Assembly (NCBI GenBank): GCA_943357895.1
Contig: CALRGO010000005.1
Span: forward strand, 1 to 35,554
Direction: 5' to 3'
DNA length: 35,554 nt
Origin: Parcubacteria group bacterium
GTDB taxonomy: Bacteria > Patescibacteriota > Minisyncoccia > UBA6257 > UBA11618
In this document: piece by piece, positions 1,797 to 28,415 of the stretch
Layout: each line of letters starts with the position of its first letter
How positions within the stretch are numbered: position 1 is the stretch's first letter
The notes under the pieces: generated by a model
Seen by the model: the letters and a program-made list of their open reading frames with translations, nothing else
What the model was told of the DNA's origin: nothing
Databases searched by the model: none
Translations under genes and position numbers: made by a program

Positions 1797-1853
1797 AAAA
1801 AAAGAAGCCCTGCGGCGCTTCGGGGAATTCCTTCCGCCGAAACGCCGCAGGGC
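1797..1853 (-). terminator. long GC-rich hairpin/terminator closing orphan cassette 1
   Basis: GCCCTGCGGCG...CGCCGCAGGGC stem followed by a T run on the minus strand. Confidence 0.75.
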
Positions 1854-1860
1854 ACACACT

Positions 1861-2553
1861 TCATTTCTTAGACCTGAAAATGCGCGTTCCTACCGGCCAC
1901 TTAGCATCGCTATTTTGAGAATAGTTAGCGAAAAAACGCCATCCGCTATCCCCAAAGCCGCGACGGACGTAATAACATGAAACGAGAATATCCGTGTTCA
2001 TGTAAAAAACGTTCGAAGTGTCTAACGACTGACGAGTAAGAAATAGACGTGAAACTTCCGGCTCCAAAAGGAAGCGAAGTGCCGCAAAATCGACTTCATG
2101 CCCTGTGCCCAGCTCGCGGCGGATATCCGAATCCGTCATTGCACAGGATAAACCGAAGCTCGCAAGGCGCCGTTCCGGTTGCGGATCAACAGCGACGCAC
2201 ATCGTAAGAGCCGTGAAATCCGAACTAACCGAAAAGATTTTAAGGGCAGGATTTTGTGAATGGAAATAGTTATCAACCTTAAAGCCGTCGTCGGACTGCG
2301 GAATGACGATATCGCCATTCACGGGAACCAAGAGCCGCTGATCAGCGACGGGCGCAACGGTAGGTGCGGGAGGCTTTTGCAGGTTCCGCACCTGTAGCTC
2401 ATGCAACGCCTTCCGCACTTCGTCCGGTTCGCACCGCAGCAATTCGGGCCACAGCGCCGGCAAATGCCACGTCCATCGATCCCGCAACTCATCGCTCAAT
2501 CCGTTCGGTAAGCCAAGCCCATCTACCATCTGCAGAAATTTCAATCGCGACAT
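1861..2553 (-). CDS. hypothetical protein (orphan cassette 1) with a C-terminus reminiscent of C-type-lectin-fold CPR proteins
   Basis: 230 aa ORF with GGAGA SD, own promoter (TTGCCT-17-TATTAT, 2635-2607) and terminator. It ends NVFY...GWRFFAN...WPVGTRIF. Confidence 0.75.
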   Translation of the reverse strand: MSRLKFLQMVDGLGLPNGLSDELRDRWTWHLPALWPELLRCEPDEVRKALHELQVRNLQKPPAPTVAPVADQRLLVPVNGDIVIPQSDDGFKVDNYFHSQNPALKIFSVSSDFTALTMCVAVDPQPERRLASFGLSCAMTDSDIRRELGTGHEVDFAALRFLLEPEVSRLFLTRQSLDTSNVFYMNTDILVSCYYVRRGFGDSGWRFFANYSQNSDAKWPVGTRIFRSKK

Positions 2554-2660
2554 ACCAGCATCTCCATTAGAGTTTTCAAAATACGTCCCTATGACGAACC
2601 GCCGTTATAATACAATAATTGCCTCGTAAAGGCAATTTTCCTTAAGCAGTCCACCGATGA

Positions 2661-2817
2661 GCAAGTGGCGCGTGGATATGCTTTTTGGAACATCGCGCAG
2701 ATGCCCGCAGCTTGGTATTTTTGCCGCGCAAAAATTGCGGGCATCGAGCGGGAAGAAAGTTTTCTCGCCGGAAGAAAACTATTCTGGTTCCAAAAAGCAT
2801 ATGCGCGCGGCGCTTGT
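2661..2817 (+). other. branched inverted-repeat structure of unknown function
   Basis: An outer stem of about 30 bp (includes ATATGCTTTTTGGAAC/GTTCCAAAAAGCATAT) encloses GATGCCCGCA/TGCGGGCATC and AGTTTTCT/AGAAAACT hairpins. Confidence 0.6.
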
Positions 2818-2818
2818 G

Positions 2819-2844
2819 AAATAAAGATTTTCTAGTTGTCCCAA
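2819..2844 (-). other. 3' arm of the pre-16S processing stem (pairs with 5837-5862)
   Basis: AAATAAAGATTTTCTAGTTGTCCCAA is the near-perfect reverse complement of TTGGGACAACTAGAAAATTCTTATTT upstream of the 16S. Confidence 0.8.
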
Positions 2845-2959
2845 CAAAGTCGTGACTTTAGGCTCCACGACCAAAACCTTGTATCTCCCAACAACCCGTG
2901 AAGGTGTGTTGGCTTTAATTAAGTAATCCACGAGCAGCTTCCGCTACCCGTGCCTTGTT

Positions 2960-3737
2960 CATGCTTAACCCGCATGTCGCCATGCGGCATGGACTATATC
3001 TTCATCCTGTCTTTCAGAATTTGCGCTTTTATGGGATGAAACGACCCGATGCAACTGGCAAATAGTTTCTGGCTTCGTGCCGAGATAAATATCCGCCAAT
3101 AATCAGGATCAACTCGTTTACTTGGATTATGGATCTTACCAGAGGTAATACCCATAGCTTCCAATATTTCTTTAAGTGCGGCGATTTTCTGATAATTCTT
3201 CTGCACGAGCTGGATATAAAATCTATCCGCCGTGCGTGGAACACCGCCTTCTGCGTCAAAAAATCCCCGCACATATGCAGATTGCGCCTGCTGGCTTTTC
3301 AAAGAAAGCGGATCATGCTTGAAATCCAGTTTTGGACATAATGTTTCCAAAACATGCAAATCACGCATTTTTCCCTCCTTGTAAATCCAAGAATTCGAGC
3401 CGATGTTTTTTAAGAGCACCTGCAAGGTCTTGAGCCAACGGACATCTTTCTGCACGAAACGAATTCTTCTCCCTTTATTTAACGAAGCATCATGCAACGC
3501 TCCGTTCAAATACGCTATTATTTCTTCTTCAGACATAGGAGCTTGGCGTATAGTCTCTGAGGACTCTCTTTCAATAACGCATTGAAAGGTTGCCTGCTGA
3601 TTTTCTGCACCGAACGCATTTTCACACATGTATCTATTATATCATGCGTAGCGTCGGATACTCAGGAGTTCCAGCATATAGCCAAGTTTTTAATGCTGCA
3701 TTACTGCAACTAGTCGCAACTTATGCAGATTGCATCA
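2960..3737 (-). mobile_element. group I intron (778 nt) after 16S U1498
   Basis: Interrupts AAGTCGT|AACAAGG, with 5' exon ending in U and intron ending in G. The IGS GCGACT pairs exon AGTCGT with a U-G wobble. P/Q/R/S elements are ATGCTGGAA, AATCAGCAGG, CAGAGACTA and AAGATATAGTCC. Confidence 0.95.
2994..3536 (-). CDS. LAGLIDADG homing endonuclease inside the group I intron
   Basis: Motifs YLNGALHDAS and YVRGFFDAEGG. The likely start is MSEEE (3536), just after the R element, because the upstream 31 codons overlap the ribozyme core. The stop lies within the S element. Confidence 0.9.
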   Translation of the reverse strand: MSEEEIIAYLNGALHDASLNKGRRIRFVQKDVRWLKTLQVLLKNIGSNSWIYKEGKMRDLHVLETLCPKLDFKHDPLSLKSQQAQSAYVRGFFDAEGGVPRTADRFYIQLVQKNYQKIAALKEILEAMGITSGKIHNPSKRVDPDYWRIFISARSQKLFASCIGSFHPIKAQILKDRMKI

Positions 3738-3821
3738 ACGACTTCGTCCGTGTCACCGATTCTACCCTGATTCGGCGAGGCCGAACTTCAGATATCCCCG
3801 GCTCCCCTGACGTGACGGGCG

Positions 3822-4349
3822 AGAGTCCTCCGTAAACTCGGAGTTGACATCCCCACGTAGCGAGCGGATTTCCCGCACTACGCGAGCTCAAACTTTTTTA
3901 ATTTCGTATGAGAGAATCCTTCCCCAGCACCACTTTTACTCATGGTGTTTATATATATGACATTGTTTTTCAAAAAAACTATGTTTTCTATACACAAACA
4001 TTTTTAGTAAAAGTGGTGCTGGGTACTATGATCCAGCTGACTTCTTACGCCGCGTAAGTTCAATTATATCATATCACGGATATGATAACGGCATAAGATC
4101 TCATCGGGTTAGTACGTATTCTCTTCCTAACATCCCGAGCGAACCTTTTTAAAATATCTTCCCCATCCTCACCGCCTATTTCCTTGATGGGTCGATATGG
4201 TTCTTTTTTTGCTCGGGCTATTATTCGCCTCCGGATCCTCCGCCATGTCCCTCGCGGACCATGACTATCCTTCGACTACGCTCTTTTGACGGACAAAAGA
4301 GGTATGGATTTTAACCATATAGATTACGTACCTGCCGATCGCGGTTTTT
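3822..4349 (-). mobile_element. ORF-less group II (IIC-like) intron (528 nt) at 16S about 1399/1400
   Basis: Interrupts GTACTCAC|CGCCCGTC. Domain V is CGCGTAGTGCGGGAAATCCGCTCGCTACGTG (CGC triad, 2-nt bulge). J2/3-DIII reads GAAGTCAGC..CATAGTACCC..GGGGAAGGA. DI closing pairs are ATCGG/CCGAT and GTACGTA/TACGTAC. Confidence 0.85.
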
Positions 4350-4694
4350 GTGAGTACAGGACTCGAGAACGTATTCACCGTGGTATAGCTGACCCACGAT
4401 TACTAGCGATTCCAGCTTCATGAGGGCGAGTTGCAGCCCTCAATCCGAACTGAGACCAGTTTTGGGGATTAGCTCCGCCTTACGGCTTGGCAACCCATTG
4501 TACTGGCCATTGTAACACGTGTGTAGCCCAAGGCATCAAAGGGCCATGCTGATTTGACGTCGTCCCCACCTTCCTCCCAGCACACAACGCACCTTATATA
4601 TAAGATGCGCTCTGTGCTGGGCAGTTTCCTGCGACACTTGTAACGCAGAATGGGGGTTGCGCTCGTTTCCCCACTGAAGGGAACGTCTCACGAT

Positions 4695-4725
<31 letters not shown>

Positions 4726-6001
4726 CACTTGTCCCTTGAGAGGACTGCCAGTCTTTCGATAGGCATTCAAGTACATGTCTAGCCTTGGTAAGGTTCTTCG
4801 TTTACCGTCGAATTAAACCACATGTTCCACCGCTTGTGCGAGTCCCCGTCTATTCCTTTGAGTTTTAATCTTGCGATCGTACTTCCCAGGCGGCTGATTT
4901 AACGCGTTAGCTACGCCACTCCGAGGGTCGATACTCGAAACAGCTAATCAGCATCGTTTAGGGCGTGGACTACAAGGGTATCTAATCCTTTTTGATCCCC
5001 ACGCTTTCGCGATTGAGCGTCAGGGATGCCCCAGCTACCTGCCTTCGCCTTCGGTGTTCCCCACAATATCAACGGATTTCACCCCTACACTGTGAGTTCC
5101 AGTAGCCTCTAGCACCCTCTAGTCACGCAGTATTTCACGCTAGTCCGAGGTTGAGCCTCGGTATTTGACATGAAACTTACGCGACCGCCTACTCGCTCTT
5201 TACGCCCAATAAATCCGGATAACGCTCGGGGCCCTCGTATTACCGCGGCTGCTGGCACGAGGTTAGCAACCCCTTATTCCATGGGTACCATCATTTGTTT
5301 TTTCCCCATGAAAAGCAGTTTACAGACCAAGGTCCTTCATCCTGCACGCGGCGTCGCTCGATCAGGCTTGCGCCCATTGTCGAATATTCTCGACTGCTGC
5401 CACCCGTAGGTGTACGAGCCGTGTCTCAGTCTCGTCGTTGGAGAATGGCCTCTCAGCCCTCCTATCCGTCATAGCCTTGGTGAGCAGTTACCTCACCAAC
5501 TAGCTGATAGAGTCTAGGCCGTTCCCGAAGCCCCTTGCGGGTTTACTCTTGCGAGACCATCTGGAATTACCCCGTCTTTCGACGAGCTGTGCCAGACTTC
5601 GGGGTACGTACCAAGATATTACTAACTCGTTCGCCGCTAAACTATGTAATCCGCAACCTTTGATGTAATCTCAGCTACTTCAAACATAGTCCCGCTCGAC
5701 TTGCATGCCTTATCCACGCCGCCAGCGTTCATCCTGGACCAGGATCAAATCCTCTGTGTAAAGCTTCCGGCTCATGGCTTTCAGTTTTTAAATTGCTTCA
5801 AACACTCAATGCCGGTCGCCAAAAGCTATTCGTTTATTGGGACAACTAGAAAATTCTTATTTCGTATTGAGTTGCCAATTTGCTGTCAGTTCAGCGTTTT
5901 CTGGAAAAACATATCCGCCTCTATTTCGGCTAAGTAGCCGGAACAGGGGCGGATGCATTTTCGTGTTGCGTGCAGCCGCTTGTAAATCGATAAGTCAGTT
6001 C

Positions 6002-6029
6002 AGCATATCAGATAGATTACGGGTGTCAA
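6002..6029 (-). promoter_or_regulatory. rRNA promoter
   Basis: TTGACA-16 nt-TATGCT with an extended TG, about 240 nt upstream of the 16S 5' end. Confidence 0.75.
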
Positions 6030-6115
6030 GCGTGGTTTAAGAGGCATAATAAAGCTGTATAAAACGGTGAAATTAAAGCCTAATTTTCATGCATTAAAAA
6101 GTGAGAAAATGCCGA

Positions 6116-6144
6116 TTGCCAAAAAACCCAGCATATAGTACTAT
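6116..6144 (+). promoter_or_regulatory. rpmE-prfA promoter
   Basis: TTGCCA-17 nt-TACTAT, 10 nt before ATG 6155. Confidence 0.65.
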
Positions 6145-6154
6145 ACGATTACTT

Positions 6155-6421
6155 ATGAAATCTGACATACATCCCACATATCACGAAAAGGCCAAGGTGA
6201 CGTGCTCGTGTGGCAACTCATTCGAAGTCGGCTCCACGAAAGCCGCTATTGGTGTTGAAATCTGCTCGCAGTGCCACCCGTTCTTTACGGGCGAAGAAAA
6301 GATGCTCGACGTCGCCGGCCGCGTAGAACGCTTTAAGGCGCGTCAGGCGAAAGCCGCAACGACCGTTAAGACGGTAAAGAAGCCGCGCGTACCGAAGGTA
6401 GAAAAAGCGAAAAAGGCGTAA
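6155..6421 (+). CDS. rpmE: 50S ribosomal protein L31 (Zn-binding type)
   Basis: [24 protein letters not shown] and GRVERF. Start set at the internal Met. Confidence 0.97.
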
Positions 6422-6429
6422 ACGCAAAT

Positions 6430-7152
6430 ATGCAGACGGCAATCCTTGAAGTAAGGGCCGGCGCGGGCGGCGACGAAGCCGCCCTTTTCGCGGGCGATTT
6501 GGTACGTATGTACGAACGCTACGCCGCAACGCAGGGCTGGCGCTTTACGGTAATCGACGCAAACCAAAACGACCTGAACGGCTATAAAACATTCGTAGGT
6601 AAAGTGACGGGCGAGGGGGCATTCACCGCCCTCATGAACGAAAGCGGCACGCACCGCGTACAGCGCGTCCCCTCTACCGAAAAACAAGGCCGCGTACATA
6701 CTTCCACCGTGACGGTAGCGGTGCTCCCCGAAGTGGAGGCTAAGGAGGTAGTAATACACCCGAACGATCTCGAGGTAACCTTTTCACGCAGTGGCGGCCC
6801 GGGCGGCCAGAATGTTAATAAGGTAGAAAGCGCCGTGCGCATTCACCACAAGCCCACCGGTATCGTCATCTCCTCCCGCGCCGAACGCACGCAAAACGGC
6901 AACCGCGAAGCGGCGCTCGTAATCTTGCGCGCCAAGTTATTCGAAATAAACCGCCTCGAAGCGGCAGGCCCTTTAAGCGCCGACCGCAAGGCGCAGGTAG
7001 GTAGCGGCGACCGCAGCGAAAAAATCCGTACCTACAACTTCCCCGACGACCGTATCACCGACCACCGCATAGGCAAAAAGTGGCATAACATAGAAAAGAT
7101 CTTAGAAGGCAATTTTGAGCCTATCGCGAAAGCGTTTCGCGAAACGAAGTGA
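6430..7152 (+). CDS. prfA: peptide chain release factor 1 lacking the N-terminal domain
   Basis: [21 protein letters not shown] (PxT), [10 protein letters not shown] and [11 protein letters not shown] in only 240 aa. Confidence 0.9.
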
Positions 7153-7153
7153 A

Positions 7154-7177
7154 TAGTGGGTAGTGATTAGTGAGTAG
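7154..7177 (+). repeat. short tandem heptamer repeat (TAGTGRN)
   Basis: TAGTGGG TAGTGAT TAGTGAG TAG. Related arrays occur at 19748-19774 and 27131-27157. Confidence 0.7.
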
Positions 7178-7189
7178 ATACGACGACGC

Positions 7190-7230
7190 AAAAAAAGAAC
7201 GGCCGCCAGTAAGTCACTGACGGCCGTTTT
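7190..7230. terminator. bidirectional terminator between prfA and orphan cassette 2
   Basis: AACGGCCG-CCAGT...ACTGA-CGGCCGTT stem with A and T tails. Confidence 0.8.
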
Positions 7231-7248
7231 GTTACCCGGCACTTGATT

Positions 7249-7641
7249 TCATCGACGGGCGAGATCACTCACGTGCTCTGGCCGACCTTGCACGACCTTC
7301 AAATGGTCGTTAATTGGCGAAGTCTCACTCAGTGTCGCGTTCAAATCTTCACGAGGCACGGTCGGATCGAACGAATCCGCACCATGCACTTCAGCCTGAA
7401 GCGCCTGCTGCGCCGGATTATCGAGTAGCTCGACGTCAGAATCTCCCCTGTCATCTTTCTTAATGCGACGGGTTAACCCCTCAGGATCGAGCTCCAAGAG
7501 CAAGGCGTCCGCAACCTGAACGAGCTCGTTCATGATACGAGCAGAGAGAATTTTCGCAAGCAATTGCGCGCGAGCGATGTGCGCTTCGTCATGCACCCTC
7601 ATGATTATCTCAACAAAGCCCTGAAATACACTGTCTGTCAC
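7249..7641 (-). CDS. hypothetical protein (orphan cassette 2)
   Basis: 130 aa, GTG start with AAAGGAG SD, promoter TTGACG-17-TATAAA (7721-7693), downstream terminator. Confidence 0.7.
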   Translation of the reverse strand: MTDSVFQGFVEIIMRVHDEAHIARAQLLAKILSARIMNELVQVADALLLELDPEGLTRRIKKDDRGDSDVELLDNPAQQALQAEVHGADSFDPTVPREDLNATLSETSPINDHLKVVQGRPEHVSDLARR

Positions 7642-7728
7642 GGCGAACTCCTTTACTAAATCAAAGTTTTTTTGGAATACGGAACTGCCTTATTTATAAC
7701 ATAAATAATACTATCCGTCAATAGCACC

Positions 7729-9021
7729 TCAAAGCGAAGCTATGCCTGCATTCTGGAGCGCCGCAATATCGTTCTCAAACTGCGCTGCTTTTTTTACCAC
7801 GCGCTCGCCGTATGTCCATAAGTAGTTTTGCCACCGGCCACCGGCGTAATAGCGCGCCGCCGCGCGGCGGTATGCCGTTGCATCCACCTCTGTCCCCGCC
7901 CCCGCGTCTTTCATGTACAAGGCAGTCGCCACAAACGCGTCCGCGTGCCGCCACGGCGACGGCGGGTTATTGCCGGTTAAGGCAGTAATACGCGACACAA
8001 ACCCCTTCCACGTCGCGGGGATAAACTGCGATACGCCCATAGCGCCGCCGTACGCACCGTCTGAATTAGCGCACGAAACGAGCGTCGTATCAGGGTTCAT
8101 CCCCAATTGCGCCGTAAGCTCCAAAAAAATCGATACGTCGCGCGTAGGGTGCATTGATTTCTGGTACGTACATCGGCCGACGTTACGGCCTAAGGCAGAC
8201 TCACCATCAAGCACCGCAAGCAAAAGCGCGGGGCGAATACCCACCATACCCGCTGCAGACTTGGCTATCTGGTACGCCTTCTCGAACGTAAGCGCTCCCC
8301 CGCCCGCAAATTCAAAGATACGGCTACGAATCTGCGCTGCTGTCTTTTGCGATTCTTTTAAAAGCACTTGATACTGGCTTTCCTGCCCCTTGGTTTCTTT
8401 AAGCAAAATATCCTTTTCTTTCTTCGCCGCAAGAACGACTTTATTCTGCTCATCGCGCGCAACCTTCAACTGCGCTGCATCCGTCTTTTTTTCTGCTAGA
8501 TGTTCTTGCAAATCAACCAGTTCATCGCGCGCCGCAACGGTTTTTTGCAACGCCTCCTTCAAGCTACCCTGTAGCGAAAAAAGTCCATCAATATTATTAA
8601 AAAATCCCGAAAGCGTGGGGTTCATTACAAGTATCTCCGCCAAGCTTACACCCCCTTCTTCATGCAGGGACTGTAATGCTGCCGTAAGCATCTGCTTGTT
8701 TGTTTGGAGCTTAATAGTCGTCACCTGAATATCACCCTGATTTTTCTTTATTTCCTTATCGAGTTTCAAAAGCGACAACGATATCGCCTTAATTTCCAAA
8801 TTAAGCTTTTTCGTTTTCGCGTTCATTGTGGCTATTTCGCCGTTCAACGTCTTACCCTGCTTTTGGTACGTACCGATTGTTTTTTCATACGCCTCAATTT
8901 GCGCCTCAATTTCTTTTAATTGCGCCTCAAGGACGGCCCGCTCGGCGGCTGATGTCGTTTGCCCGTGCGCAAAAAACGGCACGGTGAGCAATACCAATAA
9001 CAATGCGGCGAAATGCCTCAT
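7729..9021 (-). CDS. secreted coiled-coil protein with a C-terminal lytic transglycosylase domain
   Basis: Signal peptide MRHFAALLL..AHG, long coiled coil, and GESALG and GGAMGVSQFIPATW lysozyme-like motifs. Confidence 0.85.
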   Translation of the reverse strand: MRHFAALLLVLLTVPFFAHGQTTSAAERAVLEAQLKEIEAQIEAYEKTIGTYQKQGKTLNGEIATMNAKTKKLNLEIKAISLSLLKLDKEIKKNQGDIQVTTIKLQTNKQMLTAALQSLHEEGGVSLAEILVMNPTLSGFFNNIDGLFSLQGSLKEALQKTVAARDELVDLQEHLAEKKTDAAQLKVARDEQNKVVLAAKKEKDILLKETKGQESQYQVLLKESQKTAAQIRSRIFEFAGGGALTFEKAYQIAKSAAGMVGIRPALLLAVLDGESALGRNVGRCTYQKSMHPTRDVSIFLELTAQLGMNPDTTLVSCANSDGAYGGAMGVSQFIPATWKGFVSRITALTGNNPPSPWRHADAFVATALYMKDAGAGTEVDATAYRRAAARYYAGGRWQNYLWTYGERVVKKAAQFENDIAALQNAGIASL

Positions 9022-9085
9022 AGATAGATATAAGCCTACCATGCTTTTGCGAGTACGAAAAAAGCGCCCTGCGGCGCCTGTTTCG

Positions 9086-9748
9086 TTATTCTTTAGCGGA
9101 ATCTTCCTTTTCAGCCTTTGCTTTTTCGCGTGCCGCCTTCTGTTCGTCCGTCTCCGACTTCACGTCGTCCATAGTCATTGTGGGCGCCTCGGCAACTTCC
9201 TCTTCGCGCGGGGCGGCAACGGTTGCAACCATCGCGTCCGGCTCAGCTTGAATAACCGCCTTCTTGCTAATAGCGAGATCCTTCACGAGAATGCTGTCGC
9301 CTACGTTTACGAGCTTATTAAGATCAACAATCAAGGAGTGCGGCATGTCAGCCGGAAGCGCTTCGACTTCGAAGTCGGATGCCGCTTTTATAAGCACTGC
9401 ACCCGCCTTTACTGCCGGTGACTCGCCGACAAACTCAACCGGCACGTATGCCGTAAGCTTTTGATCCATGCGAACTTGGCGAAAGTCGGCGTGCTCAACA
9501 ACGCCCGAAAACGAATCACGTACCACGTCTTGAATAAGCACCGAAACCTTAGCGCCCGCGGCGTTAAGTGTAACAACGGTTGTTTCGCCCGCCGCTTTAT
9601 ATGCCTTTGCAAATTCCTTCGCAGGTACGGCAACATGCACGTTATCGAAACCGTTACCGTACACTTCGCCAATTACGAAGCCCTTCTTACGCCATATTTT
9701 CGCTGCGCTCCGTCCGGTTGCCGTGCGCACTTCTGCCTTAAGTTCCAT
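9086..9748 (-). CDS. rplY: 50S ribosomal protein L25 (Ctc form)
   Basis: LKAEVR, GEVYG, HADF, VPVEFVGESPAVK and an acidic tail. Confidence 0.95.
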   Translation of the reverse strand: MELKAEVRTATGRSAAKIWRKKGFVIGEVYGNGFDNVHVAVPAKEFAKAYKAAGETTVVTLNAAGAKVSVLIQDVVRDSFSGVVEHADFRQVRMDQKLTAYVPVEFVGESPAVKAGAVLIKAASDFEVEALPADMPHSLIVDLNKLVNVGDSILVKDLAISKKAVIQAEPDAMVATVAAPREEEVAEAPTMTMDDVKSETDEQKAAREKAKAEKEDSAKE

Positions 9749-9785
9749 ATAAGTCCCGTAACTATACCACGATGGGGCGGATTAT

Positions 9786-10675: not shown

Positions 10676-11275
10676 CTACGCTTGATGCGTGGGGCGGATG
10701 GCGATAACGCCGGCTCTGATCAATTCGTCGCGATCCCTGCGCCAATCAACCTCTACCGGATGACCGTGCGAAAGGATACTGCCGCGTAACTCCTCATATG
10801 CACCTTCGGATACCCGCATGCTATTGCAATGATGGCATTCTTCAAGCGTCGCCAAAACCATATCAGACCGAGCATACATCAAGCCGTTAATGTCCGGATG
10901 AGTATGCACCACGAGCGTAAAATCGCTTTCAACGCACGCATGCTGCGCGGCGCTCAGCATGCTGATTGCGATACCGTCATCCTCCCTTTTCCGACCATGG
11001 TGGTAGAAAAAGAAATTATTGCCAGCTCCCGCGACGTCGTGCGGGGGGTTGGGGAAGAAATGGATATGCGGAGGAATGGCAAATTTCTTCGGCATCGTTT
11101 CGGCTAAACGCAATCCATCACGCAACCACCCGACATACCGCTTGAATTGTTCGGAGGTCAAGCGAATGCCATCAACGATAACCGGAATGCTATTGTGCAA
11201 TTCGGTTAAAATCTCCGCACGCCAAGAATCCCTTTCGTACAGATCTTCCATCCAATCTAAAGCGTTTTTAGGCAC
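10676..11275 (-). CDS. hypothetical protein with a zincin-like EExxH motif (orphan cassette 3, gene 2)
   Basis: 199 aa, GTG start with AGGGAGG SD, VLATLEECHH helix. The 3' end overlaps the terminator hairpin at 10664-10697. Confidence 0.7.
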   Translation of the reverse strand: MPKNALDWMEDLYERDSWRAEILTELHNSIPVIVDGIRLTSEQFKRYVGWLRDGLRLAETMPKKFAIPPHIHFFPNPPHDVAGAGNNFFFYHHGRKREDDGIAISMLSAAQHACVESDFTLVVHTHPDINGLMYARSDMVLATLEECHHCNSMRVSEGAYEELRGSILSHGHPVEVDWRRDRDELIRAGVIAIRPTHQA

Positions 11276-11299
11276 GATGGCCTCCCTTCTAAGATTTTG

Positions 11300-11767
11300 T
11301 TAGTTAGAACTCGGACGAGGACCTGCTTGCATGCCGAATTTCGTTGCAACCGCTTCGATTTTTCGATATTCAGCCATATGAAGCGGAATCATCGAAATCG
11401 TCGCGTCAGGATGACGCTCTTGCAATCCACGAAAGAGAATTAACGCCCCTGCTTGCAATAACTCAGTGCGCTCCGTTGGAGCCGAAACGAAAGCGATCAA
11501 ATGCGGCTGACTCGGCGTGCGTTTTGGTACGCCCACACCACCAAGTAAATTAGCGGCAGCCGTCGTCAAGATCAGGATATTCCGCTCGGATAAGAAACTT
11601 CTCAATCCAGCCGCGAAACGGGCTAAATCGGAAAGAGATATCCGCGTAGTGATGATTTCGAACGCGAGAGGTTCTGTGAGTCCGTTTTCCGGCACCACAG
11701 GCATCTCCCACCGCAAGTGGTCATACGCGACTACCTCTTCTGACTGCGGAAAACGATTTGTAGACAC
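11300..11767 (-). CDS. hypothetical protein (orphan cassette 3, gene 1)
   Basis: 155 aa, GTG start with AAGGAG SD, promoter TTGACA-17-CAAAAT (11846-11818). Confidence 0.7.
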   Translation of the reverse strand: MSTNRFPQSEEVVAYDHLRWEMPVVPENGLTEPLAFEIITTRISLSDLARFAAGLRSFLSERNILILTTAAANLLGGVGVPKRTPSQPHLIAFVSAPTERTELLQAGALILFRGLQERHPDATISMIPLHMAEYRKIEAVATKFGMQAGPRPSSN

Positions 11768-11867
11768 GATACTCTCCTTCTCAAATAGGTTTTCAGTGAA
11801 CAGCTAACAACAGTGCTATTTTGCACTATTTAATACTTTTTGTCAAATACGAGCGAAGTAAACCTCT

Positions 11868-22727: not shown

Positions 22728-22818
22728 TACTATTAGTAGTACCGCATATTTACTGCCTTGCGAAGCACTTGCAAAAACCAGCGAAACGGCATATGATTAC
22801 CTTACTTAACGTATTCCC

Positions 22819-23010
22819 ATGAAACACTGCTTATTGTGCGGCAAAGGATCAATTATGGCGGGCACTCGCAAGCTTTTGCGTGGCCACTACAACCCTACGA
22901 ACTGGAGCCGTAAATACCCCAACCTCCAAAAGACCCCCTTAGCCGACGGCCAAACTGTCATGGCGTGCACTCGCTGCCGCCGCACCCTTGTGAAGCCGGC
23001 TCGCAAATAA
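22819..23010 (+). CDS. rpmB: 50S ribosomal protein L28
   Basis: CLLCGK...PNLQ...CTRCRRT. Promoter TTGCAA-17-TATGAT upstream. Confidence 0.88.
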   Translation: MKHCLLCGKGSIMAGTRKLLRGHYNPTNWSRKYPNLQKTPLADGQTVMACTRCRRTLVKPARK

Positions 23011-23023
23011 GATACTAGGACTA

Positions 23024-23094
23024 CGGGGTGTAGTATATGGGTAGTACGCAAAGCTGGGGGTTTTGCAAACCGGGTTCAAGCCCCGGCACCCCGA
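23024..23094 (+). tRNA. tRNA-Pro(GGG), CCA not encoded
   Basis: Acceptor CGGGGTG/CACCCCG-A, anticodon loop CT-GGG-GG, T arm CCGGG-TTCAAGC-CCCGG. Confidence 0.92.
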
Positions 23095-23098
23095 CCGC

Positions 23099-23138
23099 AA
23101 TAAATCAAAAAGCGCCATACGGCGTTTTTTGATTTATT
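23099..23138. terminator. bidirectional terminator
   Basis: AATAAATCAAAAAGCGCC-ATAC-GGCGTTTTTTGATTTATT between convergent units. Confidence 0.85.
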
Positions 23139-23151
23139 GTCAAAAAACCCT

Positions 23152-23520
23152 CTACCCGATATGCGTGTGCACCTTCGCTATAAGGTCATTCGGCGTAAAA
23201 TGCGCCTTTATCAAATAATCTTTCGCACCTAATTTCATCCCCCGCTCCACATCTTCGCGCTGGCCGAGGTTGCTTAAAATAATTACGGGGATAGCGGCAA
23301 CGCCCGCTACCTTCGCTTTTGCCTCTAAGTAATCGAACCCATTCATAATAGGTAATATGATATCCAAGACCACTAAATCCGGCTTCTTTTTCGCCGTCAT
23401 ATCGAGCGCCTCGCTGCCGTCGAGCGCCTCGATCACAGTAAACCCCTCCTTCACAAGCTTCGCCACGAGCACTTCGCGCATGTATTTTTCGTCCTCGACC
23501 ACTAAGATCGTCTTTGTCAT
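23152..23520 (-). CDS. single-domain response regulator (REC)
   Basis: VVEDE, VVLDIILP, ILSN and YLIK motifs. Confidence 0.95.
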   Translation of the reverse strand: MTKTILVVEDEKYMREVLVAKLVKEGFTVIEALDGSEALDMTAKKKPDLVVLDIILPIMNGFDYLEAKAKVAGVAAIPVIILSNLGQREDVERGMKLGAKDYLIKAHFTPNDLIAKVHTHIG

Positions 23521-23532
23521 ATAAGGTTTATA

Positions 23533-25059
23533 TTAGCGCAATGGGAGCGTTATGGTAAACGCCGCACCTTCGTTTTCTTTTGATTCGACTTCTATTGTCC
23601 CCCGATGTCGCTCGATAATATTTTTAACGATATATAAACCCAAGCCAAAACCTTGTACCTGCATCTTTACCACGTTATCCCCACGAAAGAATCGCGAAAA
23701 AATCTGCGCCTTTTGCTGGGCCGGGATCCCCACGCCGGTATCTACCACCCTAATCTTTACCACATGCACTTCACGCACCACAGAAACCGTAACGGATCCC
23801 TTCGGCTTATTGTACCGAATGGCGTTGTCTATGAGGTTACCAATTGCCATTTCGATTTTCTCCGCGTCGAGTGGCACGAGGGGCATACGTAATTTTGTGC
23901 GTTGCTTTTCTACCGTAAGCTTCACGCCGGCATGCCGCGCCTCATCGCGGAAGGAATCCGCAACGTGGGCCACGAGCGCTAAAACGTCGGTCTTTCGCGG
24001 CATAAAATTATACCGTCCCTCCTCGATACGGGTGATATTTAATAAGTCATTTACAAGCTTAATCATCTGCTCATTCGTTTCGTAACTGCGCGATAGGAAA
24101 TGCTTTTGCTTTTCGTTCAGCCTGCCCCAATCACCATCAAGTAATGTCTTTATATTCCACTTCGTGCCGGTAAGGGGCGAACGAAGCTGATGCGCTAAAA
24201 GGGAAATATAGTCCGACTTCGCCTTATGCAACGTTTCTTCGCGCACGGCTATCGCCATAATTTTTTTGAAATTAATAATAAGGATTATGACGAAAATAAC
24301 GCCCATCACCATCAAAATGACGGCGAGCGCAATGGCATTATATTTATTCGCCCATGCTTCGGTAAGCGGATCCTCGGCGACCACTGTCCAGCCGATGCCC
24401 GTGGCACGCAGTGCAACACCCAACACTTCATCCCCTGCCTCGTTAACGTAGGTGCCCGACCCGCCCGATGGTAAGGCGGCATCCGCGCCCATGAACGAAC
24501 GTGCACCCTCGACATCGATATCCGTCACGCCCTCGTATTCATGGAATACAATTCCCCCTTTCGCGTCGACCGCGTACAAGCGGCCGAGGACTCCCACGCG
24601 CTCCGAGGCCATTTCGGCTATCACGTCGCCTATTGTCACTACCATATCAAGTGAAAAATCGGTATACGGCAAGGGCGCCGTAATACGTATAACCTTGCGA
24701 CCAGCCATCGGCATGACAGGGCTCACAACATATTCCCCATATTCCGAAGTAGTGGGAATCAAAGACGCCGCTATAAAATCAGGATGACGCGCAAGGAATT
24801 TCCCAATAATAATATCCGTCTTTTTCTTATTTGTACCCGTTTCCAAAATATCGAGCGCTAAACCGCCCATTTCGCGTAATTTCTTCTCAAGAAAAAAGTC
24901 AGCACGAAGCGCTACGCGCCGCGCGACTTCCGCCTGATACTGCACTGCCGACTGTTCCACATCGCGCATGAAAGGAGCGAGCCATACGGCGTTCGAAAGT
25001 ATAAAAATAACTCCTATCGCGATGACAACTGGCCACGCGAATAATTTTTCTCGGCTCAC
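23533..25059 (-). CDS. membrane sensor histidine kinase (Cache-like sensor)
   Basis: Two TM segments, HQLRSPL H-box, NLIDNAIRY, DTGVGI and GFGLGL. Start probably GTG 25059 after TGG-TATTCT. Confidence 0.93.
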   Translation of the reverse strand: MSREKLFAWPVVIAIGVIFILSNAVWLAPFMRDVEQSAVQYQAEVARRVALRADFFLEKKLREMGGLALDILETGTNKKKTDIIIGKFLARHPDFIAASLIPTTSEYGEYVVSPVMPMAGRKVIRITAPLPYTDFSLDMVVTIGDVIAEMASERVGVLGRLYAVDAKGGIVFHEYEGVTDIDVEGARSFMGADAALPSGGSGTYVNEAGDEVLGVALRATGIGWTVVAEDPLTEAWANKYNAIALAVILMVMGVIFVIILIINFKKIMAIAVREETLHKAKSDYISLLAHQLRSPLTGTKWNIKTLLDGDWGRLNEKQKHFLSRSYETNEQMIKLVNDLLNITRIEEGRYNFMPRKTDVLALVAHVADSFRDEARHAGVKLTVEKQRTKLRMPLVPLDAEKIEMAIGNLIDNAIRYNKPKGSVTVSVVREVHVVKIRVVDTGVGIPAQQKAQIFSRFFRGDNVVKMQVQGFGLGLYIVKNIIERHRGTIEVESKENEGAAFTITLPLR

Positions 25060-25113
25060 CTTACAAGAATACCACACGCGCAACCCGTCGTGTGTGGGGA
25101 TAAAACTACTGTA

Positions 25114-25647
25114 TTAAAAACGAGAGATACGACTCACGAAGTATACCGCAAAAATACCGATAAGGGCGCCGCAAAGGATATCCGTCGGGTAATGCACAAG
25201 CGAATAAACGCGCGCTATACCAACAAGTAAGGCGCAGGCGAAAAACCAGTACCCCCATTTTTTATTTAACTGCCATATGCTCGCCGCAAGCGTAAAAAGC
25301 ATAGTCGCATGAGCCGAGGGGAAGGACGGCGTCGTATCATGTGCCGTAAGAGGTGTCCAACCAAACTCCACAAAGGGACGCATGCGGCCGTAGCCGTAAC
25401 GGATTGCCGGCAGCACAATCCCCGAAGCGATGATAATCGCAAGAAGCGTCATAAGGATAAACTGCAAACGCCGCTTCTTACTGAGTAAGGGCGTAGTTTC
25501 CGAAAACGCGCGCGGCGTAAAAAGAACTACAACAAAAGCAGCCATAAACAAGTACGGCAAATATGAGGCGAAAAAAACCGCTACTCCGTCCAAAAACGGA
25601 AAGCGGCCTATAATCGAATGGGCGAACTCTAGGGTAGCGCCGTCCAT
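25114..25647 (-). CDS. PAP2-family phosphatase (undecaprenyl-diphosphatase-like)
   Basis: RxxxxRMRP, SFPSAH and ARVYSLVHYPTD motifs. Confidence 0.92.
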   Translation of the reverse strand: MDGATLEFAHSIIGRFPFLDGVAVFFASYLPYLFMAAFVVVLFTPRAFSETTPLLSKKRRLQFILMTLLAIIIASGIVLPAIRYGYGRMRPFVEFGWTPLTAHDTTPSFPSAHATMLFTLAASIWQLNKKWGYWFFACALLVGIARVYSLVHYPTDILCGALIGIFAVYFVSRISRF

Positions 25648-25650
25648 TTT

Positions 25651-25860
25651 TTAGTTGGCGCGGACGAATGGCATGAGCCCTAAAACGCGTGCGCGCTTTA
25701 TCGCCTGCGCTAAGCGGCGCTGGTGGCGGGCGCAGACAGAGCTATAGCGCGGGTCAATAATCTTCATCTGACCCGAAATAAAGCCACGGAGTAATTCCGT
25801 ATCTTTGTAATCGATGTCATGCACGTCCTGCGAACAGAAGAAGCACTGGATTTCTTTCAT
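25651..25860 (-). CDS. rpsR: 30S ribosomal protein S18
   Basis: IDYKD, HQRRLAQAIKRAR and LMPF. Confidence 0.96.
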   Translation of the reverse strand: MKEIQCFFCSQDVHDIDYKDTELLRGFISGQMKIIDPRYSSVCARHQRRLAQAIKRARVLGLMPFVRAN

Positions 25861-25890
25861 AAATAGTTTTTGTATACTACCGGAAAATTG

Positions 25891-26391
25891 CTAGAAGTTC
25901 AAGTCTTCGGGCTTGATACCGTCTTCCTCGGGAAAGAAGTCCGCCGGCGTTTCGTGCGGCGCGTCGAGATCGATAGTGGGGATTTCTTGCGCTGGAGCAA
26001 AGCCGCTTTGCGGCGATGCATCCCCCTGCGGACGGGGCGTAAAGCCTCCTCCTTGGTTACCGGCCGATCGCGGCCCGAGCTGCATAAACTCCGCAACGAT
26101 TTCCGTGGTGCGGCGCTTACCGCCCGTCTTATCCGTCCAGTCACGGCTCTGCAACCTACCCTCAATAAGCACCATGCCACCTTTGGTTAAAAAGCGCTGG
26201 GCAACCTCCGCCTGCCTACCCCATACGACGATGTTATGAAACTGCACATCCTCCTTTTTCGCGCCGCTCTTGTCGTTCCATGTGCGGTTCGTCGCCATAG
26301 AAAACGTGGCGACCTGCTGGCCAGCAGGAGTCGTCCGCAGCTGCGGATCCCCCGTTAACCGACCTATAAGCGTTACCTTATTGAGGTTCAT
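25891..26391 (-). CDS. ssb: single-stranded DNA-binding protein
   Basis: MNLNKVTLIGRL, IEGRLQSR and an acidic tail ending in F. Confidence 0.97.
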   Translation of the reverse strand: MNLNKVTLIGRLTGDPQLRTTPAGQQVATFSMATNRTWNDKSGAKKEDVQFHNIVVWGRQAEVAQRFLTKGGMVLIEGRLQSRDWTDKTGGKRRTTEIVAEFMQLGPRSAGNQGGGFTPRPQGDASPQSGFAPAQEIPTIDLDAPHETPADFFPEEDGIKPEDLNF

Positions 26392-26788
26392 TAGTACCCT
26401 GAATGGTTTCGAGAGCGGCTTCGAGCGCCGCGTTGCTTACCGCCTCTGGCGAAAAAGGCTTCGTTTCAAGCTTCTCGGCTTTCGGTTCGCGCGCGTCACG
26501 ACGGCGGGTCATTACGGGTGGAGTGATTAAGATGTGGCGAAGGACTGCCGTGTTCGTACGCACCGACTCCTCCATGACTACGACGTCCTCCGGCGAGGTT
26601 TTCACGACGTATATCGTAAGGAAAGCGGATTCATACTTCTTAATCGGGTAGCCCAACGGAACCGATTTCGGCCCTTCTTTTTTAACTACTTCGATATTTG
26701 CGCCTAACTCAAGAACCGTCTTATCGCTTACCGTAAGCACGGCAAGTTCGTACAGACGCGCATCCCTCTTTTCTACTACAGAATCCAT
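26378..26788 (-). CDS. rpsF: 30S ribosomal protein S6
   Basis: YELAV, LGYPIKK and VLRHILI, in rpsF-ssb-rpsR order. Start uncertain by a few codons. Confidence 0.85.
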   Translation of the reverse strand: MDSVVEKRDARLYELAVLTVSDKTVLELGANIEVVKKEGPKSVPLGYPIKKYESAFLTIYVVKTSPEDVVVMEESVRTNTAVLRHILITPPVMTRRRDAREPKAEKLETKPFSPEAVSNAALEAALETIQGTNEPQ

Positions 26789-26817
26789 ATGCATGAAAAT
26801 TACCAAAAAACACCCCC

Positions 26818-27636
26818 TTAGTCAATCTTCCAGACCGCACGGGCGTTTTGCACCGTTATTCGCGCCACCTCGTCAAAAGCAACGCCTTTTAGCTCAGCTA
26901 GCTTCTTAACGACTTCCTCAACGTATGCCGGCTCGTTACGCTTGCCGCGATAGGGAACAGGGGTAACGTATGGAGCGTCCGTTTCGGCTAGTATGCGACT
27001 CAGCGGGATTACCGCGATTACTTCATCGTAATCGCGGGTAAAGGTTATCACGCCGCCAAAAGTAAAGTAGCAACCGAGTGCAAGCAGTTGCTCTGCCACG
27101 GACACGGAGCCGACGAAAAAATGAATAACAGTAGGTAGTGAGCAGTGGGTAGTAGATAGAATACCAATTAAATCTTCGTAGGCGTCGTCCGTATCCTTCT
27201 TAGGCCGGCAGTGGATCATAAGCGGCTTACCGACCTCTTTCGCAACCGCGATATGCGCGCGAAAAACTTCTTTCTGCTTTTCCTTTATCTGTTCCGCGCC
27301 ATCCTTTAACCGGTAATAATCCAAACCACACTCGCCGATGCCAACGGCCTTCGGGTGCACCGCTAATTCCCGCAACGTATCTATATTAAAACTATCCAAA
27401 CCGCTCGCCTCGCTTCCCGGGCGAAGCGGGCCATCCGCTGGATGCGTACCGACCGTCGCCCACAGGCAACTCGGATACTCTTCCGCGAGGGCAAGTGCTG
27501 CGCGCGACGTAGCCTCGTCCACGCCCACGGTAATTGTTTTTACGCCCGCAGATTGCATACGTAAAATGACATCCGTGCGGTCAGCATCGAATTCTGGTAA
27601 CTGTAAATGGCTATGAGTATCTATGAGTATTATCAT
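26818..27636 (-). CDS. tatD: TatD-family deoxyribonuclease
   Basis: DTHSH, IGECGLDY, IHCR, ETDAPY and RNEP. Confidence 0.95.
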   Translation of the reverse strand: MIILIDTHSHLQLPEFDADRTDVILRMQSAGVKTITVGVDEATSRAALALAEEYPSCLWATVGTHPADGPLRPGSEASGLDSFNIDTLRELAVHPKAVGIGECGLDYYRLKDGAEQIKEKQKEVFRAHIAVAKEVGKPLMIHCRPKKDTDDAYEDLIGILSTTHCSLPTVIHFFVGSVSVAEQLLALGCYFTFGGVITFTRDYDEVIAVIPLSRILAETDAPYVTPVPYRGKRNEPAYVEEVVKKLAELKGVAFDEVARITVQNARAVWKID

Positions 27637-27673
27637 TAATTACTACAATAACATAACTTTATTCTGGATATTT

Positions 27674-27705
27674 AAAAAAAGACCCGCAACTTTTCAGTTG
27701 CGGGT
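27674..27705 (-). terminator. terminator closing orphan cassette 4
   Basis: GACCCGCAACT-TTTC-AGTTGCGGGTC followed by T7 on the minus strand. Confidence 0.85.
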
Positions 27706-27733
27706 CGTGACCCCTACATGCGCACAAGTCATC

Positions 27734-28300
27734 TCATGCAACGGCGAGTTCGGTGTCCGCTACGGCTTCTCCGAAGCCGGAATCGGGTTCAACCCACACG
27801 CACGTCGCGTCAATGAAATGGAGCCCCATACGACATGAATCGGGGACATTCATAAAAAGGGAATTATCGACGAGTAGAAGTGTAACCACACTCGCCGTCA
27901 ACGCCCCACTACTCAATGCCTGCAAAATTTCTTCCGGACTTCGACTAAAACCTCTCTTTCCCTGTGAGCAAACTTCAACAGAAAGAAGCTCGCGACCATA
28001 CTGGTCGTAAATCTTACCTGTTACCTCGTCACGTCGCAAAGAAACGGAAAAAACTTTTGGCTGCCCGCAAGAACCGAGGCTAAATCCCCGACCATCATGC
28101 ATCTCAGCATCTAAAGAAGCTCCCCGCGGCCATTCAGGCGACGCACGGATCGGAATAAGCCGACCCCCAACCTCAAAATCAACAGCACCGAGACAACCAG
28201 ATTCATCCGGTATACTAACCGAAGATGAAGTGGTCCCGCCTTTTTTCGAACGCATCCACCGCACGAATAAGGCAACTAACCAGCTAGTCAAAAAACTCAT
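27734..28300 (-). CDS. hypothetical protein (orphan cassette 4) inserted between metG and tatD
   Basis: ATG 28300 with GGAGGT SD, promoter TTGACT-17-TAAGGT (28402-28374), amphipathic N-terminus. Confidence 0.7.
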   Translation of the reverse strand: MSFLTSWLVALFVRWMRSKKGGTTSSSVSIPDESGCLGAVDFEVGGRLIPIRASPEWPRGASLDAEMHDGRGFSLGSCGQPKVFSVSLRRDEVTGKIYDQYGRELLSVEVCSQGKRGFSRSPEEILQALSSGALTASVVTLLLVDNSLFMNVPDSCRMGLHFIDATCVWVEPDSGFGEAVADTELAVA

Positions 28301-28415
28301 CGATCCTACCTCCAAAAGAAACGAGGAAACAAAAATGCGCGCGCAGCGCATTATCCAAAAACGAACTGTTAATACCTTAACAGATTAGTATTAAAAAGTC
28401 AAGTTTTACTGAGAA

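Follow-up and report, generated by a model that had tools for sequence, protein, structure and literature searches.

Canonical Shine-Dalgarno boxes on lineage-specific genes of Paceibacteria without an anti-Shine-Dalgarno sequence

The textbook role of the Shine-Dalgarno (SD) box is a single job, i.e. pairing with the 3' tail of the 16S rRNA. What, then, are canonical SD boxes doing in a genome whose 16S tail cannot pair with them? This question is raised by a stretch of 35,554 nucleotides (nt) from a Parcubacteria group bacterium (assembly GCA_943357895.1, contig CALRGO010000005.1), henceforth the window, in which an earlier note, made from the sequence alone, had pointed out five open reading frames (ORFs) with such boxes between core genes. 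The window is the whole of contig C5 of the genome under study (G000; 528,474 bp on nine contigs, 93.6% complete), and nearly all of its genes lie on the minus strand. The observation was confirmed, and it holds more generally than the window. The five ORFs, here called orphans 1 to 5, belong to a genome- and clade-wide class of lineage-specific, fast-evolving and often gained or lost accessory genes of Paceibacteria that have no anti-SD. The format of this class is a leadered transcription unit of its own, in which a canonical box of the AGGAG type precedes the start by 4-9 nt, and core genes are either probably leaderless, with a -10 box beside the ATG, or situated inside operons without SD.

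Five orphan genes and a 16S tail that cannot pair with their boxes

The boxes, spacers and start codons are as the earlier note had given them, with a canonical SD located 5-7 nt upstream of all five starts, three of which are GTG. Orphan 1 has GGAGA, 7 nt and ATG at 2553; orphan 2 AAAGGAG, 6 nt and GTG at 7641; orphan 4 AAGGAG, 6 nt and GTG at 11767; orphan 3 AGGGAGG, 5 nt and GTG at 11275; and orphan 5 GGAGGT, 7 nt and ATG at 28300. The corresponding duplex free energies (dG) against a canonical anti-SD probe are, in the same order, -6.4, -8.2, -8.8, -11.3 and -10.6 kcal/mol. In four of the five the box stands directly ahead of the first possible start, while the box-led ATG of orphan 5 is the third candidate; the database homologs of this orphan, 153-189 amino acids (aa) long, are in line with the box-led start. 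The units and their coding sequences (CDS) are arranged as follows.

1804..2635, minus strand: orphan 1 unit, with promoter-like TTGCCT-17-TATTAT (2635-2607), box (2565-2561), CDS 2553-1861 (230 aa) and terminator (1821-1804)
7198..7732, minus strand: orphan 2 unit, with a promoter-like site (7732-7705), an alternative TTGACG-17-TATAAA (7722-7694), box (7654-7648) and CDS 7641-7249 (130 aa)
7228-7198, minus strand: orphan 2 terminator, with a 14-bp stem
10676..11846, minus strand: two-gene unit of orphan 4 and orphan 3, with promoter-like TTGACA-17-CAAAAT (11846-11818)
11767-11300, minus strand: orphan 4 CDS (155 aa), with AAGGAG box at 11779-11774
11275-10676, minus strand: orphan 3 CDS (199 aa), with AGGGAGG box at 11287-11281
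27681..28352, minus strand: orphan 5 unit, with a hairpin and T-run (28352-28334), a pyrimidine-rich proximal leader and GGAGGT box (28313-28308)
28300-27734, minus strand: orphan 5 CDS (188 aa), with an N-terminal hydrophobic segment; terminator at 27706-27681

A sigma70 promoter and a terminator had been claimed for every unit. This stood in part, as promoter-like sites at the scan threshold were found in three of the four units, the exception being that of orphan 5 with none at a score of at least 9 of 12, and terminators likewise in three, with none detected after orphan 3. Over the whole region, promoter-like sites are not significantly enriched (22 vs 16.2 in shuffles). The leader of orphan 5 consists of a conserved hairpin and T-run, followed by a pyrimidine-rich stretch ahead of the box.

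Unassignable is an apt word for the five proteins, none of which matched a family in Pfam, PHROGs, NCBIfam or PADLOC. The mean predicted local distance difference test score (pLDDT) was 36.5 for the AlphaFold model of orphan 1 and 36.1 for that of orphan 3, and feature-atlas matches for orphan 3 stood at 0.79-0.80, i.e. at chance level. As judged by eye, an N-terminal hydrophobic segment is found in orphan 5 only and not in orphans 1-4. Contigs from RNA libraries (two metatranscriptome runs from two studies, of freshwater and lake water) cover orphan 2 at 7235-7555 and 7282-7621 with 0-1 differences, orphan 3 at 10858-11277 without differences and at 10925-11075 with 0-1, and orphan 4 at 11285-11472 without differences. 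These contigs are consistent with transcription of orphans 2-4 in nature, DNA carry-over being possible, and are silent on translation and transcript ends. No RNA-library contig covers the neighboring core genes, which is not evidence of their silence.

The 16S rRNA gene lies in the same window and is interrupted twice.

2915..5760, minus strand: 16S rRNA gene in three exons, from Rfam and direct sequence reading
5760 to ~4350, minus strand: exon 1, ending in ...CCTGTACTCAC
~4349-3821, minus strand: insertion of ~530 nt at about E. coli position 1400, below threshold for every Rfam family
~3820-3738, minus strand: exon 2, starting with GCCCGTCAC at 3820 and running to GAAGTCGT
~3737-2960, minus strand: group I intron just before helix 45 (Rfam Intron_gpI)
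3629-2994, minus strand: LAGLIDADG homing-endonuclease ORF inside the group I intron (LAGLIDADG_3 match)
2959-2915, minus strand: exon 3 with helix 45 and the tail, reading AACAAGGCACGGGTAGCGGAAGCTGCTCGTGGATTACTTAATTAA

The tail reads GGAUUACUUAAUUAA (2929-2915) where E. coli has GGAUCACCUCCUUA, and the 3' end read across both insertions is ...GCUGCUCGUGGAUUACUUAAUUAA. In the close relative G002, which has no intron at that site and reads gaagtcgtaacaaggcacgg, the tail is identical. The expected mature 3' end is of the ...UUAAUUAA type, and CCTCC has zero occurrences on the rRNA (minus) strand of positions 2900-5765. The resident 16S cannot pair with the SD boxes, just as the earlier note had stated.

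An Rfam scan of the window gave a single SSU_rRNA_bacteria match (4303-5760, minus strand, 1283.6 bits), an Intron_gpI match (2970-3747, 55.7 bits) and one tRNA-Pro. The 16S match stops within the first insertion, onto which the model had forced the 3' end, so that automated annotation would cut off the true one.

Thirty relatives were sampled in a survey of tails, of which 17 had a 16S match and 15 a readable helix 45 and tail. All 15 tails are A/U-rich, e.g. GGAUCAAUUAAA or GGAUCAUUUAAUUA, and CCUCC occurs in none of them; judging by these reads, loss of the anti-SD is a trait of the whole order. The loss itself is already known: according to the accessible part of Tsurumaki et al. (2022, RNA 28:1041, PMC9297842), an anti-SD motif was detected in only 48% of Parcubacteria, and SD helices are presumably not formed in the others.

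Could some of the ribosomes obtain a CCUCC from elsewhere, i.e. from an unassembled second 16S gene or from a mature 3' end different from the expected one? Metagenome bins frequently lack ribosomal RNA genes, and the completeness of this one is 93.6%. Neither BLAST nor Rfam found a second 16S copy in the genome, however, a check that the earlier note had proposed. The extra 16S fragments of relatives that were examined include no anti-SD-like tail, and the sequences 3' of the relatives' tails are not conserved and have no CCUCC in common. Within the 16S gene, an internal CCUCC is absent in G000 and present as one copy in three of 11 relatives, while most intergenic matches of the CCTCC type could be traced to hairpin repeats, tRNA ends or boxes read from the other strand. 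Together with the 15 tails read in relatives, this makes a hidden matching ribosome very unlikely.

The stretch 3' of the 16S tail (2670-2959, minus strand) is itself conserved in the congener G004, and a part of it (2670-2808) also matches two other places in G002, on contigs C16 and C1. The sequence GGTCGTGGAGCCTAAAGTCACGAC forms a hairpin that is seen again 3' of the 16S in several relatives and is found in G000 just upstream of the orphan 1 promoter. The stretch may belong to a structured repeat family.

An SD-led class concentrated on non-conserved genes

By employing a crude ORF caller of our own, on which all gene calls and starts depend, we obtained 543 non-overlapping ORFs of at least 80 aa in G000, covering ~90% of the genome, and examined their first possible starts. 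That core genes lack SD signals was borne out, as there is no genome-wide SD peak at starts: SD 4-mers precede 50 of 539 first starts (9.3%), compared to 638 of 7524 internal in-frame starts (8.5%) and 1386 of 20000 random positions. A TANNNT motif beginning 11-19 nt upstream was found at 171 of 538 first starts vs 508 of 5424 internal ones, with a peak at -12. In the window, such -10 boxes adjoin the core-gene starts at 9748 (ggtatagttacgggacttatATG), 10643 (tggtatactttttatATG) and 29810 (gggattataatcatttttactATG). About a third of the core genes have a -10 box directly beside the ATG, and many core mRNAs are therefore probably leaderless. Where no -10 box adjoins the start, the sequence ahead of the gene is A-rich and lacks an SD. 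Nor do start regions pair in excess with the 16S tail of the organism itself (12 of 539 at dG ≤ -4, vs 1.3-3.2% in controls). One stretch in the leader of orphan 2, CUUUGAUUUAGUAA (7655-7668, minus strand), pairs with the own tail (UUACUUAAUUAAAG) at 13 of 14 positions with a dG of -6.5; it was taken as chance, one pair being lost in G002 and genome-wide enrichment being absent.

To score boxes, positions -20 to -3 were paired with the canonical anti-SD probe, and a strong box was defined as dG ≤ -8. Genes were divided into those that are leadered (25 nt upstream intergenic and no -10 box), those with a -10 box, and those whose upstream region overlaps another gene. Two genomes with equally anti-SD-less 16S tails were used for comparison, namely the congener G004 (602 kb, 58% GC) and G018 from another family of the order (400 kb used, 47% GC). 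Strong boxes were found in 17 of the 182 leadered genes of G000, vs 3.5% of all intergenic 17-mers (p = 3e-4), and the enrichment repeats in G004 (40 of 303, p = 1e-9) and G018 (18 of 161, p = 2e-5), with control rates of ~3.5-4.5% over the three genomes. Genes with a -10 box had 1 of 95, 2 of 76 and 1 of 101 in G000, G004 and G018, respectively, and genes with overlapping upstream regions 5 of 260, 8 of 224 and 8 of 159, the first of these being at or below control. When the scored interval was placed 25 nt further upstream of the same leadered genes, only 12 (G004) and five (G018) strong boxes were found. The boxes are strongly canonical (AAGGAGG, AAAGGAGGT), with spacers of mostly 4-9 nt in the three genomes. 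A positive control with 50 kb of E. coli gave eight of 43 genes at dG ≤ -8 in the same pipeline, so the threshold is strict and the pipeline conservative.

The genes led by such a box (SD-led genes) differ from the remainder in conservation. Among genes conserved between the three genomes the box rate is 1.9, 3.9 and 1.9%, as compared to 7.7, 12.1 and 10.8% among genes with no BLASTP match in the other two (Fisher p = 2e-3, 3e-4 and 2e-4). Some strong-box genes were artefacts, i.e. TTG starts in the T-runs of terminators and false upstream starts of conserved genes, and their removal sharpened the contrast. Divided by age, SD-led genes make up nine of 85 genes found in G000 only, six of 137 shared only with G002, none of 115 shared as far as G004 and two of 200 shared with G018. 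An SD-led class thus exists in three genomes from two families and is concentrated on non-conserved genes, in agreement with the distinct gene class that the earlier note had proposed together with a genome-wide count of SD in orphan vs core genes as its test.

Chance, by which random purine runs are picked up through suitable start codons, would fit the 4-mer counts, which hardly enrich the window and hardly separate first from internal starts, as well as the need for a third candidate start in orphan 5 and the artefacts among the genome-wide matches. It does not fit the position of four of the five boxes ahead of the first possible start, the lengths of the orphan 5 homologs, an enrichment that is limited to leadered genes and repeats in three genomes, or the conservation of boxes in orthologs described below. 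The leadered-gene enrichment and the ortholog retention test largely refute it, and we give this explanation next to no credence.

Besides the orphans, 18 further SD-led genes of G000 were scanned. Five of these have a Pfam family (Cation_efflux, NUDIX, NTPase_I-T, DnaJ and PaaX_M), and 13 have none above the curated cut-off. Two more SD-led families are Cu-oxidase_4 and DUF218. The codon adaptation of the class lies below that of the core (p = 1e-7 to 1e-9), and its G+C content at third codon positions (GC3) is near the core value in G000 (0.525 vs 0.565) and G004 (0.697 vs 0.758) and clearly above it only in G018 (0.618 vs 0.485).

These contents bear on the idea that the boxes are formatted for a different ribosome, i.e. 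that an episymbiont would export its SD-led mRNAs for translation in a host that uses SD. Apart from the mismatch in format and the fast-evolving, lineage-specific nature of the class, the data hold no hint of export: no link between these genes and an export signal or export machinery was apparent, the units have promoters and terminators of the resident type, and the class holds ordinary cytoplasmic enzymes and regulators (Cation_efflux, NUDIX, NTPase_I-T, Cu-oxidase_4, DUF218 and CsrA). This part of the earlier note found no support, and we regard host-directed messages as the least credible of the explanations considered, with a probability close to nil.

Three sequence elements were seen in connection with the box survey. 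A dispersed intergenic hairpin family, with the arms CCTCC(T) and (A)GGAGG and a loop of the type TCGCTAAAGCT, is found in G000 (C1:32552, 47266, 50286 and C4:36211) and G004 (C1:24220, 41395 and 73550); some copies are terminators, and the family inflates intergenic SD-like counts and caused a few false SD calls. In G004, at C4:33805-35740 and 38915, three to four neighboring SD-led genes share the leader CTTTCCCAATACAATTTCT...GGAAGGAGTATCGT-ATG, which looks like a reusable leader-plus-box module before different small genes. Lastly, GAAAAC occurs 20-53 nt upstream of the start in eight of 56 SD-led leaders of G000 and G004 (orphans 1 and 4 included) vs six of 282 other leadered ones. It was rejected as a motif of the class, being not significant after correction for the 6-mers tested and absent in G018.

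Among the other genes of the window, a release-factor-like gene (6430-7152, plus strand) directly follows rpmE (6155-6421). Its product is only 240 aa long, and the PCRF match begins at profile position 101 and is followed by the RF-1 domain, i.e. the protein seems to lack about 100 N-terminal residues of a normal RF1/RF2. It has homologs in G004 (42% identity) and G018 (35%).

Retention, turnover and candidate readers of the box

Orphan 5 offers the clearest view of a box through time. It is found in place in G000, G002 and G003, between the same two flanking core genes, which are 76-88% identical; orphan 5 itself is only 60% (G002) and 31% (G003) identical. In G004 the slot contains an ORF of 142 aa that has no detectable protein similarity, with a proximal leader that is recognisably alike. 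The leaders read tttcttttGGAGGTAGGATCG-ATG in G000, tgctttgGGAGGTAGGATCG-ATG in G002, cttcttGAGGAGGTTGTATCG-ATG in G003 and gttctttGGAGGGTGTAGTCG-ATG in G004, with GGAGG ~7-8 nt before the ATG in all four genus members. The box of orphan 5 outlasts the protein sequence.

Retention was also evaluated for 12 ortholog pairs between G000 and G002, using the divergence of each pair's leader from -60 to -21 to simulate neutral decay of the 17-nt box window. Eight pairs keep a dG ≤ -6, where 3.95 are expected (p = 0.011), and 2-3 of the losses are due to the nearest-start rule, with a box-led start a few codons away. Several of the box-keeping pairs are only 24-47% identical in protein, and in two pairs the box has changed in sequence or position and is still SD-like. 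The Cu-oxidase_4 family, with a homolog in seven of 81 genomes of the order, has a box in G000, G004, G018 and G070 at 26-34% identity, and its gene has the same conserved neighbor in G004 and G018. In the lineage of G018, none of four SD-led proteins had a match in the family relatives G049 and G074 in which retention could be followed. Whether homologs keep their SD in anti-SD-less lineages, a check suggested in the earlier note, can be answered positively for orphan 5 in four genomes and for eight of the 12 pairs. By this comparison the box is kept in orthologs above what leader divergence predicts, and the evidence that it is constrained is real but modest.

The units themselves come and go. 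In G002, orphan 2 keeps its promoter, leader, box and GTG, while its slot is empty in G004 and G001, where the flanking core genes are ~80 and ~20-30 nt apart; no repeats were visible at the borders of this insertion and no mobility gene was found. Orphan 4 is absent in G002, in which its promoter and leader are directly followed by orphan 3, with AAGGTGG and ATG. Orphan 1 was not found at its slot in G002 or G004. The slots of other SD-led genes measure 460, 941 and 699 nt in G000 vs 74, 118 and 3 nt in G004. With such differences in slot presence among relatives, self-contained and dispersed cassettes slotted between core genes, as the earlier note put it, describes the units well.

Their origin is less apparent. 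Two clusters out of 5.8 billion match orphan 3 (99% and 82% identity). Orphan 4 has two clusters (93% and 84%), orphan 1 two other representatives among 1.84 billion (45% and 31%), and orphan 5 six clusters that are 50-60% identical; for these four, the large protein databases yielded neither a donor nor an outside homolog. A phage source was not found either, the orphans having no PHROG matches and tblastn against phages being empty for orphan 1 and one SD-led gene of G018. Neither the SD-led NTPase_I-T gene nor the NUDIX gene has a counterpart in G002, G004 or G018, and no related loci were found for the former.

A protein that could read the boxes is encoded in the genome. The GGA sites bound by CsrA in model bacteria overlap the SD, and its own mRNA is among the targets. 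In G000, CsrA is encoded at C1:182399-182554 (minus strand; PF02599, 90.9 bits). Ten of 16 genomes of the same family have a match, as compared to none of 14 from other families of the order, G018 being among those without. All 10 csrA starts examined, from eight loci in six genera and with 47-75% protein identity, are preceded at 4-8 nt by an AGGAG-type box, and since the leaders beyond the box are not alignable, this conservation cannot be neutral. In G002, csrA had no match in the whole genome nor in the 544 kb examined; the flanking region is missing as well, so that absence is not shown. Four genomes have two CsrA matches each, adjacent in G008, G009 and G013 and on different contigs in G006, and in G004 and G001 only the N-terminal 37 CsrA positions match, inside open frames of 146 aa. 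According to the accessible part of one study on ultra-small prokaryotes of groundwater, csrA is one of their highly expressed genes (PMC9938205). Where core mRNAs are leaderless, a regulator that binds leaders could only act on the leadered class.

The following course of events may account for these findings. The box format would go back to SD-using ancestors of the accessory genes of Parcubacteria. Once the anti-SD had been lost, the box would have stayed useful as a cis element read by a factor other than the 16S tail, and ribosomes would load on these leaders without SD pairing, the box acting as a control or enhancer site. As the boxes are kept above the neutral expectation, we think that they may still be functional via another reader, and consider the chances about even that they are functional and not read by the 16S tail. 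Of this, only a minor share goes to CsrA specifically. A more specific version, in which the box has been taken over by a non-16S reader (CsrA or another RNA-binding protein, a ribosomal protein or a trans-acting RNA) as a dedicated translation switch for leadered accessory genes, with core genes leaderless, is put forward tentatively.

Several points weigh against functional boxes. The retention test comprises just 12 pairs, its null depends on an alignment of positions -60 to -21 that we made ourselves, and factors besides the box may conserve start regions. The dnaJ box of G000 is lost in G002 without visible consequence; not being at SD distance in G002, G004 and G018, it was counted as a chance match rather than a real SD. 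Half of the SD-led G000 genes (12 of 24) have no homolog in the 544 kb of G002 examined. Regarding CsrA, SD-led leaders have no extra GGA (0.46 vs 0.47, 0.50 vs 0.72 and 0.24 vs 0.40 in the three genomes), and six leaders fold no better than shuffles (z from -0.57 to +1.48), i.e. the usual architecture of CsrA sites is not seen; moreover, G018 has no CsrA and yet as many SD-led genes. For this family CsrA is, on this analysis, only a lead, and it does not explain the class in general. Finally, the codon usage of the class is atypical at the p-values given above, the SD-led genes of G018 are compositionally foreign and look like imports (GC3 0.62 vs 0.485 in the core), and the steep fall of SD-led genes with gene age also fits decaying relics.

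The last three points lead to a serious rival, namely that the box is a leftover from SD-using donors: cassettes would come from a gene pool shared by Parcubacteria and mobile elements, with a box that is useful in hosts with an anti-SD and here neutral and slowly decaying. Slot presence and absence between close relatives (orphan 2 in G004 and G001, orphan 4 in G002, and slots of 460-940 vs 3-118 nt) would be expected from this, as would the patchy occurrence of Pfam-bearing SD-led genes such as Cu-oxidase_4, NTPase_I-T and NUDIX. Donors with an anti-SD would be at hand in the 48% of Parcubacteria in which one was detected (PMC9297842), and gene transfer in Patescibacteria is, in the accessible part of a recent study, mostly among Patescibacteria (PMC12455944). 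A donor pool accounts for turnover and atypical codon usage, but not for in-place inheritance or box retention: orphan 5 stands in place in four genus members with its box intact, eight of 12 pairs keep the box where 3.95 are expected, and csrA has it at 10 of 10 starts over six genera of an anti-SD-less family. Moreover, homologs of orphans 1, 3, 4 and 5 are few (two, two, two and six clusters besides the query) and include no phage match, and the GC3 of the class follows the host in G000 and G004. Of the mobile pool that the earlier note had offered as its alternative, gain, loss and slightly atypical codons remain, while donors for orphans 1, 3, 4 and 5 were not found and the inheritance of orphan 5 and the retention test speak against it. 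We consider the leftover possible, though doubtful.

Significance and comparison with known systems

A whole order lacks the tail sequence, yet the box, at its canonical distance, is kept on a defined minority of the order's genes, and selection is apparently acting on it. Our literature searches found no paper describing SD boxes kept in an anti-SD-less lineage. If the box is functional, it has a reader other than rRNA pairing, and these genomes would be an example from nature in which the SD is recognised independently of such pairing; should the box be a relic, it may serve as a time-stamp for recently gained or exchanged genes in not-yet-cultured bacteria. Both readings are approachable by comparative genomics and existing metatranscriptomes. 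In either case, gene finders need two start models for these genomes, and the box flags fast-evolving accessory genes, the likeliest mediators of host interactions.

Of the two elements of canonical SD:anti-SD initiation, the five orphans have the first, a box 4-9 nt upstream, and the resident tail lacks the second, CCUCC. In this respect G000 and its 15 readable relatives are like the anti-SD-less Parcubacteria of Tsurumaki et al. (2022, PMC9297842), with which they also share 16S insertions of the type known from the candidate phyla radiation; they are unlike them in having a gene class that keeps SD boxes, none being described in the accessible part of that work. Similarly, the lack of a genome-level SD motif is shared with other anti-SD-less organisms, e.g. 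some Bacteroidetes, Mycoplasma and Carsonella (Amin et al. 2018, PMC6107228), but that survey sought the dominant motif of each genome, and its accessible part reports no minority class with canonical SD.

As to the genes themselves, genomic islets and phage 'morons' are self-contained accessory transcription units gained horizontally. The SD-led units are like these in being single genes or pairs with their own promoter and terminator between core genes, present or absent among relatives and with atypical codons. They differ from them in that no donor, mobility gene or flanking repeat was found at the orphan 2 insertion, and in that at least one unit has been inherited in place across the genus.

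CsrA/RsmA repression, as known from E. coli and B. subtilis, acts at GGA sites overlapping the SD, with csrA itself autoregulated and typical targets having at least two GGA, often in hairpin loops. In common with this, G000 encodes CsrA, has GGA boxes within the ribosome footprint, and belongs to a family in which csrA itself is always boxed. Unlike in a CsrA/RsmA regulon, multiple GGA and their presentation in hairpins are not seen in the leaders of G000, and G018 has the class without having CsrA.

The closest parallel in the organisation of starts is group C of GeneMarkS-2 (Actinobacteria and Deinococcus-Thermus), which, according to the accessible part of its description, has leaderless first genes and SD sites on other genes (bioRxiv 10.1101/193490). 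Both have two start regimes, i.e. a Pribnow box ~10 nt from many starts and an SD box at the same distance elsewhere. Group C, however, as described there, has an anti-SD and SD on operon-internal genes, and G000 has neither, with strong boxes in only five of the 260 genes whose upstream region overlaps another gene. Furthermore, the boxes of G000 are limited to poorly conserved accessory genes, and just 17 of the 182 leadered genes have one. The division into leaderless and SD-led genes hence resembles that of group C, but in a lineage without the anti-SD and without SD on operon-internal genes.

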